Positions 39,723 through 62,588 of a DNA stretch of 64,000 bases are shown here, one piece after another. The stretch's first letter is position 1; each line of letters opens with the position of its first letter. Below the pieces are notes generated by a model. It had not been told where the DNA came from. It did not search any database and was given only the letters and a program-made list of their open reading frames with translations. Source of the DNA: an uncultured Gemmatimonadales bacterium (GTDB lineage Bacteria > Gemmatimonadota > Gemmatimonadetes > Gemmatimonadales > GWC2-71-9); contig CAVQSR010000004.1 in NCBI GenBank assembly GCA_963716055.1, forward strand, positions 97,888 to 161,887, in the 5' to 3' direction. The translations under genes were made by a program, and so were the position numbers.

Positions 39723-39866
39723 ATGTGCCTCCCCCGCTCGGCCAGGAGAAGCCCCACCGCTCAACTCACGGTGAGGCTTGATCCTCAGCGAATCGGGACG
39801 GCGGGATTTGACCGCCGAGCCCCGAGCGCAGCGAGGGGCGGCGGCTGAAGCGCGCCGGCCCGACGA

Positions 39867-39894: not shown

Positions 39895-39940
39895 TGAGTC
39901 GGGACGGCGGGATTTGAACCCGCGACCCCCTGAACCCCAT
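39895..39940 (-). repeat. att site: displaced 3' half of tRNA-Pro, 46-bp exact direct repeat of 48975-49020
   Basis: TGAGTCGGGACGGCGGGATTTGAACCCGCGACCCCCTGAACCCCAT is identical at both positions. Confidence 0.95.
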
Positions 39941-42576: not shown

Positions 42577-43250
42577 TTCGAGGACCGAAAATCGACGGAA
42601 ATTGCAGCAGAATCACAACGAGACTCACAACTCGATTGAGCACAAGATACAAGTCGGCTCTCTGAGCAAATCAGGGGGTCTACTTTTTTGGACACGGAGC
42701 CAAGAAACCACTCACAACAAACTCACAACGCCGTTAGTGTCCAGACGATCAGGCGCGTTGCCGAACCCGCCTAGTCACAGTGGAGACCGGCGGAAAGACC
42801 CCACCGAACAACGCGCCCCAGTGGCCCACCTCGGTGTCCTCCCTTCGACTCCGCTCGACGTCGTCAAGCCGAGCGAGGGCAACGTCGAGCTTCTCAATGA
42901 AGCGATTCGCTCCTTCCTCGTCCCAACCTTCAGCTACGTTGACATCGGGCAGCGCGGGGTCTGTCACCGTGGGATCGTCGTCCCAACGCGGCCACCTACT
43001 TCGTCCCAGCGTCGCCTGCCCTGCAGCAGAACTCCCAGCGCGCATGCCTGCGCCGGTCAGGTGCCTGACTTCTCTCGCACAGCATGCGAGCCGGTGACAG
43101 AACAGCTGAGAATGCTCCTTGCCCGGCGTGGCAGCAGACTCCTTGAGAAGGAATTGGCGGAGGGATGAACCCCGCTTACACCGACGATCCGAAGGCGAGC
43201 CGGTCTACCACCCACAGATGGTACCTCACGGTTTGGACCGGGGGCCGCCC

Positions 43251-43374
43251 AGCTGGCGGGCGCCGCCAAGCAGGGTAGAGTTCCATTTGTGCGCCTGTTG
43301 AGTGGCGCGGACCGAGCGGGCGGTCGCAGCGCCAGCGGGCGCCGCGCCCGCAGCTCATGCGCATCACGTTAGGC
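43251..43374 (+). repeat. attC-like site 1 (left end truncated)
   Basis: A 124-nt near-identical copy of 45585-45708, ending GCAGCTCATGCGC..CGTTAGGC. Confidence 0.75.
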
Positions 43375-43437
43375 GGCCTTACACATCTCGACAATGCCGA
43401 TACTTCATCCGAATTCACGCCACATGAGGAGAAGGAC

Positions 43438-43953
43438 ATGAGCCCCACTTGGAGAGCCGTTCTGCTATTCGCAGTGCTCCCTGGCGTTGCCGCGGCTCAA
43501 AACCGCGCCCGCACGCCAGTGGAGGGCACGTGGAAGGTGACGGAGATCGTTGTCACGGGAACGGGTGCGTTCCGCAACGCGGCCCCGCAGCCCGGCCTTT
43601 TCATCTTTACTCCCACCCACTACAGCTTCCTGTACGTCCCTGACAACGAGGCTCGGGCGCTTTTCGAAGGTCCGGTAGCTACGGACTCGGAGAAGCTCAG
43701 AGCCTTTGATTCCTTCCTCGCAAATGTTGGCACCTACGTGATTAGTGGGACGACTGTGATGCTGAGACCGATTGCCGCGCGTGTGCCCAACTGTGGAACG
43801 GGAGCGTCCATGCGATTGCAGTTCACCGTCGATAGCGCGGCGCTGCTGCTGACGCAAAAGAACACTGACGTCACGTGCGTCTATGGCGGGCAGATGGCTT
43901 CGCCAGGGGCCGGGCCGAGCGAGTCGCGACTCCGGCTCGTCCGCGTCGAGTGA
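43438..43953 (+). CDS. Cassette gene: exported lipocalin-like protein
   Basis: Signal peptide, VEGTWKV and GTYVISG motifs; GAAGGA SD; follows attC 1. Confidence 0.6.
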   Translation: MSPTWRAVLLFAVLPGVAAAQNRARTPVEGTWKVTEIVVTGTGAFRNAAPQPGLFIFTPTHYSFLYVPDNEARALFEGPVATDSEKLRAFDSFLANVGTYVISGTTVMLRPIAARVPNCGTGASMRLQFTVDSAALLLTQKNTDVTCVYGGQMASPGAGPSESRLRLVRVE

Positions 43954-43969
43954 AGGAGACAAAGCGACC

Positions 43970-44086
43970 GCCTAACCAGCGCTTGAAGCTGTCGGTGGCA
44001 GGTTCGTCCCGTGAGTTCGGCGGGCATGCAGTGCAATCCATGACAGCGACCGGAGAGCCTCAGTTCCGGCCCCACTCTGACCAGGC
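43970..44086 (+). repeat. Degenerate attC-like site 2
   Basis: Begins GCCTAAC-CAGCGCTTGAAGCTG (R''/L''-like) after the gene stop; the right end is only ACCAGGC. Confidence 0.45.
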
Positions 44087-44092
44087 GGCGAC

Positions 44093-44770
44093 ATGAAGCA
44101 TGGCTTCTGGTTCGTTCTCGGTCTATGGATGACAACGGCGTGTGTTCAGCATGTCACTCCAGTCGTCACGCCCCAGAAGATCCCACCGGTGTCGCCGCCG
44201 ATACGGGCCCGTGCACTCCTCCTCATCACACCGTCCTTCGAGGGATACCTGAGCCGGGAAAAGAACTACAGCTCCCATCAGGTGTTTCGCTACGGTGAAG
44301 CGGGCACCAAGGCGCTGTCCGCCCTCGTCACCGAGTCGTTTACGGTCGTCGAGATCAGGCGTGTTGCGGCTGCGGACGTGCAACGTTTGATGGCTGGACC
44401 GGCCGATACGTCAGTCGCAGACATCCTGCTTGCGCCCGCCTTTGAAGGCGGCGGCGCCCGGCTTCGAATGATTGCGGGGGATCCGATCTACATTCCCGCA
44501 CCCGTCGTCGACTCCATGCAGGTCAGCAACGTGTACACGACCGAAATAACGGCGTCGGTCACCCTCCGACTTGACGCCCGTTCGTTCCCTACCGGGAGCA
44601 GTTTCACATGGATGACGGTGGGTGGCACCGGCCCCGTGCTGACGTCGTTGGGACGCGCCTCCGGCCTTGCGCTCGAAATCGCGCTGCACGCCATCAGCGA
44701 TTCTCTGGCCGCTCATCGGAAGGAGTTGGAGCTCGGCACGCCTTCTGTCCCGAACAAAGAACGGCCGTAG
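44093..44770 (+). CDS. Cassette gene: hypothetical lipoprotein
   Basis: Lipobox-like MTTAC; 225 aa between attC-like sites. Confidence 0.6.
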   Translation: MKHGFWFVLGLWMTTACVQHVTPVVTPQKIPPVSPPIRARALLLITPSFEGYLSREKNYSSHQVFRYGEAGTKALSALVTESFTVVEIRRVAAADVQRLMAGPADTSVADILLAPAFEGGGARLRMIAGDPIYIPAPVVDSMQVSNVYTTEITASVTLRLDARSFPTGSSFTWMTVGGTGPVLTSLGRASGLALEIALHAISDSLAAHRKELELGTPSVPNKERP

Positions 44771-44898
44771 CTGCGACGGCCTCCGTCGCTCGTCAGCGCC
44801 CGAAGTTTGTGGTGCGGTACAAGGCTGCTGCTGGGGTCCATGGGTCTGGGGAGACTCCATGGTAGCAACAAGGGGCGCGCTCTCAACATGCGTTAGGC
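44771..44898 (+). repeat. attC-like site 3
   Basis: Ends GCGCGCTCTCAACATGCGTTAGGC (R' GTTAGGC at 44892-44898); left boundary unclear. Confidence 0.5.
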
Positions 44899-44939
44899 GG
44901 CGCTGGCACGCTTCACCACTTCACTCCACAGGGGGCTCC

Positions 44940-45467
44940 ATGCACAGGATCGTGGCCGTTGCAGCGCTCGTCCCCACTCTCGCGCTCGTCGGCGGGAGCG
45001 ATCTGGTCGCGCAGCGTCGTGGATTCATCATCGGATTTGGCATCGGCGCCGGCGTGACGAGTTATGCCACCGCCAGCTCGAACCGACAGTCAGACGTGGG
45101 TCTCGCGACCGATTTCAAGATCGGCGCCCAGGTTAGCAAGTCGGTGCAGGTCTATTACTTGGGCCGCACGAACTGGTTCAATTCAGATCTATCGAATTCT
45201 ACCGTCGCCGCTGGCATCTCGGCCATCGGCGTCAGCTACGTCCTTCCAACCGCTCCGGTACACATCAGTGGCGGGTTAGGTTTCGCCACGTTCCTGAAGA
45301 TTTGTGTGGAGTGCAGCGATCCATCGAGGTCAGGGTTCGGGGTGACAGGCGGCGTTGGCTGGGAGTTCGCCGATCTCTGGCTCCTCGACGTCGCGGTTAC
45401 ATACGGCAAGCCCGGTGACCTCGATGTGTTGGCGGCAAGGGCTGGGATCAGTATCCTGAGTCACTAG
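44940..45467 (+). CDS. Cassette gene: small outer-membrane beta-barrel-like protein
   Basis: Signal peptide followed by alternating Gly/aromatic strands (GFIIGFGIGAG, GFGVTGGVGWEF). Confidence 0.65.
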   Translation: MHRIVAVAALVPTLALVGGSDLVAQRRGFIIGFGIGAGVTSYATASSNRQSDVGLATDFKIGAQVSKSVQVYYLGRTNWFNSDLSNSTVAAGISAIGVSYVLPTAPVHISGGLGFATFLKICVECSDPSRSGFGVTGGVGWEFADLWLLDVAVTYGKPGDLDVLAARAGISILSH

Positions 45468-45567
45468 CGCCGGCCCCACCAGGCCCTGAAGCGTAGTGAA
45501 GAGTGCTGCGGCGACTCACGCCCCAGTCCTTCGGGATTGCCTCGAGCGAATGTACCCCGGGCGCGCG

Positions 45568-45708
45568 GCCTGACCGGCGCGTGAAGCTGGCGGGCGCGGC
45601 CAAGTAAGGTAGAGTTCCATTTGTGCGCCTGTTGAGTGGCGCCGACCGAGCGGGCGGTCGCAGCGCCAGCGGGCGCCGCGCCCGCAGCTCATGCGCGTTT
45701 CGTTAGGC
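45568..45708 (+). repeat. attC-like site 4 (most complete, 141 nt)
   Basis: GCCTGAC...TGAAGCTG at the left end and CAGCTCA...GTTAGGC at the right; arms GCTGGCGGGCGCGG / CCGCGCCCGCAGC are complementary with an extra base. Confidence 0.8.
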
Positions 45709-45730
45709 CGCCTGCAAGGACCAACCCCGC

Positions 45731-46465
45731 GTGATCAACAAACACGGCCTTTCACGTGACATCCCTGAGCCCATAAAGCGCCAAGTACGGACGGCCAGTG
45801 GTTTCGACTGTGTCGTTTGCGGTGCTAGTCTCGTGCAATACGAGCACGTCGACCCACCATTCGCAGAAGCCAAAGAGCATCGTTCCGATCAAATCACGCT
45901 CTTGTGCCATTCGTGCCACGGCCATGTGACGCGCGGCTACTGGTCAAAGGACAGAGTAAAGCTGGCGATGGCCGATCCCTATTGCCGCCGCGAGGGATTC
46001 TCCTGGGGGAACTTCGACTTCGGTGACCGTCACCCATCTGTGCGCTTCGGTGGCGTCCTTTTGAGCAATTGCGACATGCCCGTCGTAGTCCGTGGCCAAC
46101 CACTGTTTCTCATTCAAGGGCCAGAATGCCCGGGCGCACCATTCCGGCTCTCTGCGTTCTTCTCGGATGCCAGCGCCAATCCTCTGCTAACGGTTCATGA
46201 GAACGAGTGGCGCGTTGCTGCGGGGGTGTGGGACGTCGAGTTCACTGCGGGACGGATTCTAATTCGCGATGGGCCGGGCACGTATTCACTGGTTCTCGTC
46301 GCCGAGCCCCCCAATGGCATACGTATTGACCGGCTCCGAATGCATCACGGCGGCCTCCTGTTCGACGCTGACCCCGACACTCTCAGAATCGGTGATGGTG
46401 TCAACTGGAGCACGATGACTGGGTGCGTAGCGGACAATTGCAGGGTAGGCCTCATGCTTGGCTAG
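45731..46465 (+). CDS. HNH-type endonuclease domain protein (cassette-positioned)
   Basis: CVVCG...EHVDPPF...HRSDQITLLCHSCH Zn/HNH pattern; starts 22 nt after GTTAGGC. Confidence 0.8.
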   Translation: MINKHGLSRDIPEPIKRQVRTASGFDCVVCGASLVQYEHVDPPFAEAKEHRSDQITLLCHSCHGHVTRGYWSKDRVKLAMADPYCRREGFSWGNFDFGDRHPSVRFGGVLLSNCDMPVVVRGQPLFLIQGPECPGAPFRLSAFFSDASANPLLTVHENEWRVAAGVWDVEFTAGRILIRDGPGTYSLVLVAEPPNGIRIDRLRMHHGGLLFDADPDTLRIGDGVNWSTMTGCVADNCRVGLMLG

Positions 46466-47128
46466 TGCAGGCGGCGTAAGCTCAACTTTGACGTGCAACG
46501 TTCACCACGATAGCGCGTCTTTCGGCGGGGTTCATCGGGCATAGCATTCCTCCGGAGTGCGGTAGCCGAGGCGCTTGCGGGGGCGCTGGTTGAGCGTCCG
46601 CGCGAATCGCGACATTCACCTCGGTGTCGCGGGCTTAGTGGACACCACCGTCACGATCATCACTGAGATTCCCGATGCGAGGTGTAGCGGAGCCTGTCGG
46701 TCAGGGTTCGCGGCGTACTACGCCCGGGCTCGGCAGACGCTTGAGGAGCGCCTGGCAACCTGGACAGACGCCGCCCCAAGCTGGCCGTGGTTGCGGTCGA
46801 AGAACCCCACGCCCATGACCTCACCTCCCTGCTCCTCCGCCTAGAGGCCACCCCACAGCCTCTAACCGGAGCGGCCCGGACGATGGCGGAGGAGGCGCTG
46901 GTCGAGGCGGTGCGGACGTGCGAGTTGCCCGTGGTGTACGGGGTCGGGCTGGCGGGGCGGCCGTCGCGGAACTAGATGGCAGGCGGGCAGACGGTACCCG
47001 TCTACCACCCATGGATGGTACCAGAGTCTTGCACCGGAAGTGGGCCGGGGCCGACCACGAGAGTGGGTAAGCCAACGACCCAGTGGTCCGCCTCCTCAGT
47101 GCGGAGCTTTCAGCCCATGCGGATCACG

Positions 47129-48730
47129 CTACATAACAGCACCGCGCATCCGTTCTGCTTCGGCTTTCGTGATCGCCGGGAATCGCGTGGAACCCTCCGG
47201 CGGTTGGTGCCGGAGAATGAGTGCGAAGTCTGGCGATGCGGAGAATCGGCCGCCCGTCAGGTGGTCGTAGACTGACACCGGGTGCCGCGGATCAAACGCG
47301 AGCGACGGCGCGACCGTCGGATGTGGTCGCATCAGCTTCAATCCCATGCGACGGACCTGGGAATGGCTCAGGAACGCGTGACACATAAAGAGAAGCGCGT
47401 GCACTGTGTTGGGGTCTAACCGCTGCTGGAGGCGGAGCCACGAAGCGGTGCTGCGCGAATCGGACGCAGCGAAATGGTAACCCCCGCAATTACGAAACTC
47501 GCGCAAATCTGATGCGCGCGCCCGCCAGAGTGGCCACAAGTACGTTGAGAACAGCGACCTCGCTGTCAGCGGCAGGATTTGCCAGTTTGCTTCTGCAGCC
47601 CTAACTAGGTTGATGCGTCCGGGCTCAAAGAGGCGTACAACGCTCGCATACAATACCTGGAGGATGCGGGTCCGTGCCATTGCACGTGTGAGCGGCCCGG
47701 CCAGAAAGTGCCCGCGGCCGACTCCGATCTCCTCGCGGATCAACGCCGCGTAGAGTTGAGATAGAGCCGCGCTCCCGTTGGTGCCATGAGCCGCTTGCAG
47801 AATAACGGCTGCATCAGGGGCAGCGTGCCATTGGGTGTGTTCGCGGGCACGTCGCTGGTCGGCCCAGTCTGCGACTGCTCGAAGCGTCAGTACGCCAAGC
47901 GAACCTGGCCACCGCACCAGCCTGCCGACTATGTGCTGTACGGACGGGAAGACCGGCCAGAGCTCCGGAACATCGAGGGCCCAGCCAAACGCAGTGGACT
48001 TGTCGAACGTGTGGTACCACGCCCCCAGGTCAGCCGCATACGCGGGGTCGGCCGGTTCGAGAAGTGATGCAGCGCAGTAATGGGCGAGGACCACTAACTG
48101 CATTAGGTCTCGAAACTTCACGCGGCTGAGCGAATCTATGCCATGGTTGTGACCCTCGATCGTGGAGGGTGCATGGTGAGCCACGTTATTGCGGATGGAC
48201 AGGACCGATGGTTTTAGCCGGCGCCAGTTAGCGACCAACATAGCCCGCATTGCGGCGGCGTCCGAATCCGGCACCGGGCGCGAATCGAGAAATCGCAATA
48301 GATCGACGCCAGAGCGATCAAACAGCAGGCCAACATCGGCCGCTGCGTACGCACTGAGATGGCGCACGGCGCGCCCCAATTCCCCAAGGGTGATAAACGC
48401 GCACGTCCCGCCGAGTTTGACGTCGGCTTGGGCTAGAGCTCCGACGCACGAAATGGTGAGCGAGGCGCTTTGGATGCTCGCGAGTGCGGCGACGAGTTCG
48501 GAATCGCGCACACCATCCAGAGGGAACACTCGCTCGCTTGCTGCGGGCTCGGGAGCCAGATGCGACCACATCTCGCGATGGCGGCCAGTTTCGGGTGCAA
48601 TGCCATGCCGCACAAACATGTGCCTGAACTCTTCGAGAGTAGCGTCGTTAATGCGGTGTGGTTCGCGGCTCTGGTCCGGCTCGGTTGAAAGATCACCGTT
48701 TTTCGGAGCGCAGGGGCGTCTACCACCCAC
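47129..48730 (-). CDS. Hypothetical protein with two HEPN-like Rx4-6H motifs
   Basis: IRNNVAHH (48176-48193) and FRNCGGYH (47474-47494) in predicted helical halves; start uncertain. Confidence 0.55.
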   Translation of the reverse strand: MGGRRPCAPKNGDLSTEPDQSREPHRINDATLEEFRHMFVRHGIAPETGRHREMWSHLAPEPAASERVFPLDGVRDSELVAALASIQSASLTISCVGALAQADVKLGGTCAFITLGELGRAVRHLSAYAAADVGLLFDRSGVDLLRFLDSRPVPDSDAAAMRAMLVANWRRLKPSVLSIRNNVAHHAPSTIEGHNHGIDSLSRVKFRDLMQLVVLAHYCAASLLEPADPAYAADLGAWYHTFDKSTAFGWALDVPELWPVFPSVQHIVGRLVRWPGSLGVLTLRAVADWADQRRAREHTQWHAAPDAAVILQAAHGTNGSAALSQLYAALIREEIGVGRGHFLAGPLTRAMARTRILQVLYASVVRLFEPGRINLVRAAEANWQILPLTARSLFSTYLWPLWRARASDLREFRNCGGYHFAASDSRSTASWLRLQQRLDPNTVHALLFMCHAFLSHSQVRRMGLKLMRPHPTVAPSLAFDPRHPVSVYDHLTGGRFSASPDFALILRHQPPEGSTRFPAITKAEAERMRGAVM

Positions 48731-48978
48731 CGATGGTACCAGACCCGGATGGCCGGATCACCGGGTGCCGGCTCGGAGGGTGGCTCCTGTCACGGTCAGG
48801 TGGACCGATCTAACGTCAGAATCCGGGCCGCTTGGCGTCAGCATCGGACCGGCGGCATGCCCGACCGGGGCGGCTCCCAGCGCGACGGAAGCTCAACTTA
48901 GCGGAGAAACTAGCGGAGGGCGTAACGGGCGAGCATGTGCCCGCCCGTTAGGTGCTGCTGTCACAACGACTTCGTGAG

Positions 48979-49052
48979 TCGGGACGGCGGGATTTGAACC
49001 CGCGACCCCCTGAACCCCATTCAGGTGCGCTACCGGACTGCGCTACGTCCCG
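48979..49052 (-). tRNA. tRNA-Pro (GGG)
   Basis: CGGGACGTAGCGCAGTCCGGTAGCGCACCTGAATGGGGTTCAGGGGGTCGCGGGTTCAAATCCCGCCGTCCCGA folds into a cloverleaf with anticodon loop ATGGGGT; CCA is not encoded. Confidence 0.96.
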
Positions 49053-49431
49053 AGGGATTACAATCTACTACATCTTTACAACTTGCGCCCTTCGCGGTGG
49101 ATCGTCCGTCTTGCTACATGGAGTGAATCTCGTGGAGTAAGACTTTGGAGTAAAACGACACCGATTCCGCGGCGCCACCCCGCTCAGGGGCGACACCCCG
49201 ACCTTCCAAAACCGTTTGAATCGTCTCGCAGGTAAGGCCGAGGTGACGTGGCCCACCGGGTACAACGTCAACGCCCCCCTGACTGGTATTCAGGTGCGCC
49301 GCTTTTCTAGCGGTCTGACGAACACCGCACAGATCCGGCGTGTCTCCAGGACGGCTGCGCCCGGCGACGGTGTTCTAGGTGTTTCCCGCCGCGCACTGGA
49401 AGAAGATCCGAACGACCAATGGACTCGAGCG
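49014..49431. repeat. ~420-bp diverged direct repeat, copy 1 (tRNA 5' half + arm-like repeats + IS256 scar); copy 2 at 62096-62518
   Basis: Collinear similarity from ACCCCATTCAGG through TGGAGTAAGACT.TGGAGTAAAA to GGACTCGAGCG. Confidence 0.93.
49379..49431 (+). pseudogene. IS256-family transposase fragment
   Basis: FPAAHWKKIRTTNGLER; the second copy at ~62467-62545 continues LHDETKRR. Confidence 0.7.
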
Positions 49432-62095: not shown

Positions 62096-62134
62096 ACCCC
62101 ATTCAGGTGCGCTACCGGACTGCGCTACGTCCCG
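62096..62134 (-). repeat. att junction: 5' half of tRNA-Pro only
   Basis: ACCCCATTCAGGTGCGCTACCGGACTGCGCTACGTCCCG is identical to 49014-49052; the 3' half is absent. Confidence 0.93.
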
Positions 62135-62588
62135 AGGGATCACAATCTACTACATCTACACGACTTACGCTTTTCGCAGCGCACCATCGGTCTTGCTACA
62201 TGGAGTGAATCTCGTGGAGTAAGACTGTGGAGTAAAAAGACACCGATTCCGCGTCGCCACCCGGCTCAGGGGCGACGCTCCGACTTCCCAAGATCGTGTG
62301 AATCATCTCGGAAGTATGTCCGAGGTGAGCTGGCCCACGGTTGACAACGTCAACGCCCCCCTGGCTGGTATTCAGGTGCGCCGTTTTTCTAACGGTCGTC
62401 TGACGAACAGCGTCCAGATCCCGGCGTGTCTCCAGGACGGTTTCGCCGCGGCGACGGTGTTCTAGTCGTTTCCCGCCGCGCACTGGAAGAAGATCCGAAC
62501 GACCAATGGACTCGAGCGGCTGCACGACGAGACCAAGCGGCGCATCCTTTCCCCGATCGGGCGAGTGAGGCCCCACGCCGGATACCCA

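Follow-up and report, generated by a model that had tools for sequence, protein, structure and literature searches.

How does a group of cassette-like genes come to lie in a genomic island, on a contig other than the one that carries the integron of the same genome? The question is raised by a block at positions 43251-46480 of the window, i.e. of the whole 64-kb stretch of DNA analysed here (contig C4:97888-161887 of a 3.59-Mb, 9-contig Gemmatimonadales genome), in which the genes g1-g4 are accompanied by repeats with the appearance of attC, the recombination site of integron cassettes. A preliminary description, made from the letters alone, had proposed gene cassettes detached from their integrase gene (intI) and nested in a tRNA island, and this reading was essentially right. 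With a probability of about two in three, the block is a fossil integron cassette array that was the cargo of an element integrated at a tRNA-Pro gene; by class it is a degenerate CALIN (cluster of attC sites lacking an integron integrase), of the grade of a SALIN (single attC site lacking an integron integrase) by strict count, and carried as island cargo. The locus thus offers a well-anchored example of cassettes leaving an integron and becoming ordinary fixed genes; a single genome displays the integrase, the parent attC family, the carrier island and the steps of decay (deletion of a site arm, truncation by an insertion sequence (IS), loss of all but an R' box). The element is of a known kind, its sole unusual feature being a recurrent junction between a short motif and a half attC, and no new mechanism is involved unless this junction proves to be site-specific.

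Genes, spacers and repeats of the block

Four co-oriented open reading frames (ORFs) are read on the plus strand between 43438 and 46465 (g1, 43438-43953; g2, 44093-44770; g3, 44940-45467; g4, 45731-46465), as the preliminary description had stated. Their spacers, first given as 115-140 nt, measure 139, 169 and 263 nt, with a further 187 nt 5' of g1. The pair of near-identical repeats of about 124 nt is present, in the form of a direct repeat of 129 nt with 94% identity (43251-43379 and 45585-45713); however, these two stretches are the only parts of the spacers that belong to the attC family as sites. Three plus-strand copies of the heptamer GTTAGGC start at 43368, 44892 and 45702, and the complementary heptamer GCCTAAC is read at 43970. 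The three copies end 63, 41 and 22 nt 5' of the starts of g1, g3 and g4, respectively, so that the heptamer does stand shortly before these genes as first noticed, while the spacers after g1 and after g2 (spacers 2 and 3 below) hold only scraps of attC. Counting both strands, the four occurrences are all that the 64 kb contain and all of them fall within 43368-45708, while shuffles of the whole window give about 3.4 expected; the clustering is therefore far beyond chance.

A resident integron with the same attC family

The proposed search of the genome for intI and for further copies of the repeat identified both on another contig, C1. An integron integrase of 317 aa, IntI, is encoded at C1:1076380-1077318, with no stops and a TIGR02249 score of 436 bits against a curated cut-off of 265. 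It is the one match above the cut-off in a six-frame search of the whole genome; the others are Xer-like genes on C1 and C3, and none lies on C4, in agreement with the earlier remark that no intI is nearby. When the window repeat was used as query (BLAST and iterated nhmmer), 68 matches were obtained in the genome, about 60 of them in a single array starting 1.2 kb after intI. A covariance model counts 62 attC sites in this array (C1:1078508-1131281), all on the plus strand, over 53 kb directly downstream of intI; the family is homogeneous, with a length of about 145 nt, and the GC content of the array is 65%, against 71% for the genome. Thus, a sedentary chromosomal integron of large size is present in this genome, and the window repeat belongs to the attC family of that integron. 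Its intI is co-directional with the cassettes and not divergent from them, and is separated from the first attC by a HicB/HicA-like pair on the same strand.

Alignment of 51 C1 sites defined the structure of the family. The boxes are R'' GCCTAAC and R' GTTAGGC, with 97.8% pairing between them; the 7-bp R helix is followed by an unpaired central spacer of 2 nt on one side and 6 nt on the other, by a 6-bp stem and one bulged base, and then by a second 6-bp stem, a second bulge, a further 6-bp stem and about 85 nt of variable terminal structure. Pairing is found in 96.6% of cells, against 23-38% when partners are slid by 1-3 columns, and the stem is 96.1% paired over the 51 members; cells changed on both sides number 25, compared with 4.9±1.7 in shuffles, and 3 pairs of the stem show compensatory changes. 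On the R''/L'' arm, the one that faces the AAC of the bottom strand, the bulged bases occupy positions 16 and 23 (alignment columns 22 and 29) and are separated by 6 pairs. The published geometry of attC sites has two or three extrahelical bases on that arm, near positions 16 and 23-24, the first and the last of them being separated by a 6-bp stem (Nivina 2016, PMC5027507); the bulge positions and the 6-bp stem are the same here, whereas the bottom-strand bulges of this family are C or variable, not G and T. Moreover, the 8 nt after R' and the 8 nt before the next R'' are complementary in the resident array at a mean of 5.9/8, compared with 3.7/8 for the control (the two flanks of the same site), and such complementarity of cassette ends is a signature of cassettes that were once circularised. 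Since the same family is arrayed after intI, with canonical boxes, compensated stem and bulges at positions 16 and 23, the window repeats are real integron attC sites.

These data also bear on the suspicion that the repeats have nothing to do with integrons, being REP-like (repetitive extragenic palindromic) or MITE-like (miniature inverted-repeat transposable element) sequences or chance GC-rich hairpins. GC-rich genomes do give many weak hairpins: model R1, described below, yields 155 matches at E<10 in the window, and a simple scan for R''/R'-like pairs yields 28 per strand. Against this stand the uniform strand of the array holding most of the nhmmer matches, its position next to an integron integrase, and the boxes, bulge positions, covariation and cassette-end complementarity just described, by which this reading is already refuted; it can be regarded as next to impossible.

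One intact attC site and the remains of others

The covariance model R1 was built solely from the 51 C1 sites next to intI, and it also recognises variants of 72-150 nt among the sites of the resident array. On the 64-kb window it gave 132.2 bits (E 4e-28) at 45562-45712 and 83.5 bits at 43238-43378, with a next best score of 16 bits, so that the identification of the repeats as attC, already made in the preliminary description, was borne out. The sites and remnants of the block, with the IS remnant adjoining its end, are as follows:

43251-43374, plus strand: attC_A, a 5'-truncated attC (83.5 bits); R' GTTAGGC (43368-43374) is intact, while R'' is lost together with the first ~13 nt of L''
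43967-43997, plus strand: 5' arm of an attC alone, after g1, with R'' GCCTAAC (43970-43976) and L''; nhmmer E 4.9e-6 at model positions 4-34
44892-44901, plus strand: vestigial R' box GTTAGGCGGC, a 10-mer identical to the family R' plus flank, read from the sequence
45568-45708, plus strand: attC_B, an intact attC with R'' GCCTGAC (45568-45574) and R' GTTAGGC (45702-45708); full-length match of 132.2 bits with two unpaired pairs
46466-46480, plus strand: end of the g4 cassette, TGCAGGCG followed by a degenerate R'' GCGTAAG (46474-46480), with the attC cut off beyond it
46535-46615, minus strand: C-terminal remnant of an IS30-family transposase, the last ~27 codons (ending in LNQRPRKRLGYRTPEECYAR and the stop), from six-frame translation; it adjoins the truncated attC

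The R'' box of attC_B departs from the consensus at one position (G for A at position 5), leaving 6/7 pairs with R'. With DNA parameters, the fold of its bottom strand has an energy of -42.2 kcal/mol (z -3.0); both boxes, R and L, are paired in it, and the R''/L'' arm carries two bulges. On this modelled fold attC_B looks intact: it would have everything needed for a recombinogenic bottom-strand hairpin, and would be the only site of the block to do so. The match of attC_A to the family profile covers positions 24-150 in nhmmer; the covariance alignment lacks model positions 10-15 and 20-23 and marks 9 R/L stem pairs as non-standard, and in the DNA fold of its bottom strand the R/L hairpin is not formed. 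Folding of the bottom strands, proposed earlier as a check, was thus positive for 45568-45708 and negative for 43251-43374 and for spacers 2 and 3.

In spacer 2 (43954-44092) no match to a 3' arm accompanies the 5' arm; the covariance score of 11 bits and a fold worse than that of shuffles (z +2.3) ruled it out as a complete attC, and a 52-nt GCCTAAC…GTTCGGC hairpin within it was likewise ruled out, since it folds no better than shuffles. In spacer 3 (44771-44939) no profile or covariance match to attC was found besides GTTAGGCGGC, and no R-box pairing appears in its fold; it was ruled out as an attC, the strong hairpins (44773-44790 and CCATGG…CCATGG) excluding the R' box. Two hairpins without a T-run are present in this spacer outside any attC: GCGACGG-CCT-CCGTCGC at 44773-44790, directly after the g2 stop, and CCATGGGTCT-GGGG-AGACTCCATGG at 44838-44866. 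A perfect GCTCAAC/GTTGAGC pair at 46480-46595 was rejected as an attC, its interior being unpaired (z -0.15); its GTTGAGC falls in the LNQRPRK codons of the IS30-like remnant. The best tblastn matches of this remnant in plasmids are genes annotated as IS30 family transposase (E 0.02-0.3); no full copy of the transposase was found in the genome, and the 27-aa peptide, too short for the purpose, gave no NCBIfam match. An Rfam scan returned the tRNA alone at the gathering threshold, nothing at E≤1 in 42900-47300 and no match of attC type.

The genes g1-g4

43438-43953, plus strand: g1, 171 aa, with a signal peptide and a weak lipocalin-like match (PF13924, E 0.004, below cut-off)
44093-44770, plus strand: g2, 225 aa, with a lipoprotein-type signal (…MTTAC) and no family
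44940-45467, plus strand: g3, 175 aa, with a signal peptide and a weak match to outer-membrane beta-barrels (PF13505, E 5e-4, below cut-off)
45731-46465, plus strand: g4, 244 aa, with a putative N-terminal HNH nuclease domain (CxxC…H…CxxCH) and a domain of unknown function

The genes had been described as three envelope proteins and one HNH protein. The second part stands at the level of the family, while the first is an interpretation of signal peptides and weak Pfam matches, from which g1, g2 and g3 may be taken as exported or envelope-type proteins; g2 matches nothing in Pfam or PADLOC. The g4 family, of ~245 aa, has 82 detected homologues, some of which are named HNH endonuclease in their source records. 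C27, C30, H39, H50, C59, C62 and H63 are invariant in 29 homologues, and PF01844 is matched by 18 of these 29 family members (best E 1.4e-6), g4 itself remaining below the cut-off (E 0.074); in addition, the family profile matches the HNH domain of an IscB (E 0.003). Thus, the predicted HNH assignment holds for the family as a whole.

Among 301 genomes of the order, this one counted, homologues of g1 are found in eight, one of them adjoining an attC, while g2 and g4 are each found in two. The closest homologue of g4, 62% identical, is encoded in locus L028 (GCA_037025745.1, contig JBAIGU010001654.1), 7 nt after an attC scored at 46.8 bits by R1; the next attC is interrupted by an IS110-family gene. 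The interrupting gene, which encodes a DEDD transposase of the IS110 family, divides the site located after the g4 homologue (L028:2552-3990), and ParE/Phd-type toxin-antitoxin cassettes belong to the same array. An attC split in this way by an IS110-family gene is an arrangement typical of the attC-targeting IS1111/IS110 elements.

As regards cassette structure, the g4 cassette is demonstrably complete: it runs from the G|TT at which it starts to a degenerate R'' of its own, since its two ends are perfectly complementary, TGCAGGCG pairing at 8/8 positions with CGCCTGCA, the 8 nt after the R' of attC_B.

The tRNA-Pro island and its recurrent motif

That the block is nested in a tRNA island, as the preliminary description held, is indicated by a perfect repeat of the 3' half of a tRNA-Pro gene. 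The elements of the island and the four genomic copies of a 23-bp motif are the following:

39895-39940: left boundary of the island (attL), a copy of the tRNA-Pro 3' half, 46 nt, 100% identical to 48975-49020
43203-43225, plus strand: motif D2a, GTCTACCACCCAnnGATGGTACC, with a decayed stretch similar to a tRNA 3' half before it (~43155-43190)
47000-47022, plus strand: motif D2b, with a possible, heavily decayed truncated-attC copy after it (~47040-47135)
48718-48740, plus strand: motif D2c, 235 nt from the tRNA-Pro 3' end
48978-49052, minus strand: tRNA-Pro(GGG), identified by ARAGORN and by Rfam at 66 bits, with the right boundary (attR) formed by its 3' half, 48975-49020
C1:1431381-1431403: copy of the motif on contig C1, in a tRNA-Gln island

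The 9.1 kb between the tRNA-Pro repeats contain the cassette block. GC content falls from about 72% to about 62% near 40 kb, with 62.5% for the island and 71.5% for the flank. No integrase gene of the island was found: no recombinase was matched on C4 in the six-frame TIGR02249 search and none in the island ORFs scanned with Pfam, and the island looks decayed. About 100 nt to the left of the 46-nt boundary repeat, at 39793-39811, a further perfect copy of 19 nt of the tRNA-Pro 3' end is present, which suggests an older integration scar. On the other side, a 420-nt repeat with 88% identity (49014-49431 and 62096-62518), which includes the tRNA-Pro 5' half, bounds a second island across the same gene; therefore, this tRNA-Pro is flanked by foreign DNA on both sides.

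The motif GTCTACCACCCAnnGATGGTACC is present in four copies in the 3.6-Mb genome, all of them inside tRNA-linked islands, and it is invariant except for two central bases. The cassette block begins about 25 nt after D2a. The sequence that follows D2b aligns with truncated attC at about 3 standard deviations above shuffles, one shuffle being higher, and nhmmer matches 47110-47131 to model positions 123-144 with an E of 0.4; a decayed copy of a truncated attC may be present there, and these values are suggestive only. In two other Gemmatimonadota contigs (L025:1929-1950 and L026:2231-2252) a fragment similar to the 3' half of tRNA-Pro precedes the motif by about 30 nt. The other genomes holding it are mostly metagenome-assembled genomes of Gemmatimonadota, and further copies are found in metagenomes, none of them with attC sites. 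A half-site, GATGGTACCAAA, is repeated some 60 nt upstream in loci L041 and L044. The possibility that the motif is part of a tRNA or tRNA-like gene was discarded, ARAGORN giving none and manual fitting of a cloverleaf having failed. It is read here as an end feature of a family of tRNA-linked integrative elements, and it may be a recombinase, accessory-protein or arm-type site.

A second island with the same junction

The fourth copy of the motif lies in an island of 5.1 kb at C1:1431114-1436313 (L010:11114-16313), whose boundaries are a 37-nt repeat derived from the tRNA-Gln 5' half. This island contains the motif, a fragment of IstB (IS21), a truncated attC, a lipoprotein-like ORF of 195 aa, a full attC (142 bits), an ORF of 122 aa and an IS110-family fragment. 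Its truncated attC (C1:1432351) is cut at the same nucleotide as attC_A, and 13 of the 16 nt upstream are shared. In the tRNA-Pro island the motif is directly upstream of the junction, whereas in the tRNA-Gln island it is about 950 nt upstream, with the IS21 fragment between. The two islands hold different attC subtypes and different cassettes, with the junction at the same nucleotide of the L'' arm. The shared truncation point is explained either by an old junction, later homogenised by recombination with other attC sites, or by recurrent capture at this position. The exact junction of motif tail and attC had no match in a metagenome scan; a 96% match to it in a related genome (G025) was dismissed as a chance match inside a coding region.

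Recurrent capture would make of the tRNA-targeting integrative elements of this lineage a dedicated, IntI-independent vehicle for cassettes, with site-specific capture at an attC, or at a landing pad formed by motif and half attC, in place of a single inherited deletion; this is judged improbable.

The same junction bears on another route, in which the IntI of this genome inserted the cassettes singly and in situ at secondary sites of attG type. The enzyme is encoded in the genome, and off-site insertion of cassettes is documented experimentally (Loot et al., bioRxiv 10.1101/2022.09.11.507474). However, such insertion is expected to leave a genomic G|TT on the left and a complete attC on the right, while the observed left border is an attC without its 5' arm, found again with nearly the same upstream sequence at C1:1432351; moreover, the attC subtype differs from that of the resident array. 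In-situ insertion is thus very improbable.

Origin and fate of the cassettes

The array would have been assembled by an integron of the same lineage, though probably not in recent times from the present resident array: the two attC stretches of the block share 94% identity, whereas neither exceeds 85% identity with any one of the 51 resident C1 sites to which they were compared. Detachment of the block from the resident integron by rearrangement, for example by IS-mediated translocation within the same genome, is an unlikely alternative. In its favour, the attC family is the same, the genome encodes IntI, IS remnants flank the block, rearrangement is among the routes of CALIN formation listed by Cury et al. 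(PMC4889954), and the truncated attC of the tRNA-Gln island is close to resident sites. Besides the difference in attC subtype, it is contradicted by the absence of paralogues of g1-g4 from the genome, resident array included, and by the position of the block, within the island boundaries and adjoining the motif of an element end.

The fossil array would rather have been brought in as cargo when an integrative element inserted at the tRNA-Pro 3' end, and it would begin about 25 nt inside one such decayed element; carriage by an element other than an integron is inferred from this arrangement. It could also be supposed that the island once bore a complete integron, whose intI was deleted later. 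The distinct attC subtype and the low GC content agree with this idea, as do the heavy decay and the IS scars, and loss of intI is a recognised origin of CALINs (Cury et al., PMC4889954). Nevertheless, no intI pseudogene was found on C4 in the six-frame search, which also detects Xer-type recombinases, and no attI-like region is present at the left border, where a truncated attC is joined to the motif of an element end; loss of intI is accordingly considered improbable.

The array itself is decayed: its first site lacks the R''/L'' arm, scraps are all that is left of those after g1 and before g3, and the one after g4 ends just past R'', beside the IS30-like remnant. Excision of a cassette by IntI requires two folded attC sites. 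Since no gene of the block is flanked by two foldable sites, none of g1-g4 should be excisable by IntI, and they would now be fixed accessory genes, without an apparent promoter.

Some observations weigh against this account. The mobility of the island is deduced from its boundary repeats alone, because no integrase gene of the island was found. The attC calls depend on the family-specific model R1 and not on the generic attC model of IntegronFinder. The two ends of the g1 cassette are complementary at only 3/8 positions and g2 has no attC of its own; therefore, g1-g3 may be rearranged, or g2 may never have been a cassette. Finally, the truncated attC of the tRNA-Gln island shares 97% identity with resident sites but only 80% with attC_A, so that a single origin of the junction requires later gene conversion.

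Comparison with known systems

CALINs are defined by at least two attC sites without a nearby intI, clustered within 4 kb (Cury et al. 2016, PMC4889954). The block holds one intact and one truncated site, 2.2 kb apart, and three fragments, so that the truncated site must be counted for this definition to apply. About half of the CALINs occur in replicons encoding IntI, and rearrangement, loss of intI and off-site insertion have been proposed as their origins (PMC4889954). The locus resembles them in that its attC sites and its cassettes, each with a single ORF whose function is unknown or accessory, lie away from intI, with IntI elsewhere in the genome and IS nearby; it differs in that one attC is intact, one is half deleted and the rest are scraps, and in being embedded at the end of a tRNA-integrated island. 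From a complete integron it differs in that intI and the window cassettes are on different contigs. SALINs consist of a single attC without integron integrase, and insertion by IntI at attG sites has been proposed for their origin (Loot et al., bioRxiv 10.1101/2022.09.11.507474). Judged by its functional sites, the locus is similar, with one attC, an adjacent coding sequence and no intI; however, the flanking remnants show that it is a decayed array that formerly had several cassettes.

As in arrays interrupted by IS of the IS1111-attC/IS110 group, an IS remnant abuts a truncated attC here, and an IS110-family gene lies in the attC of L028; conversely, the remnant of the window is IS30-like and only ~27 codons of it are left. 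The resident array, in turn, recalls that of Vibrio cholerae with its VCRs (Vibrio cholerae repeats), in its long and homogeneous attC sites (~145 nt, 62 sites), R and L boxes, long and variable terminal structure and bulged bases (positions 16 and 23). The differences are the Gemmatimonadales host, the bottom-strand bulges, which are C or variable and not G/T, the co-directional intI and the HicAB-like pair before the first attC. Integrons have already been listed in Gemmatimonadota and little described (PMC8618304); the present genome documents a large chromosomal integron of 62 sites for the Gemmatimonadales.

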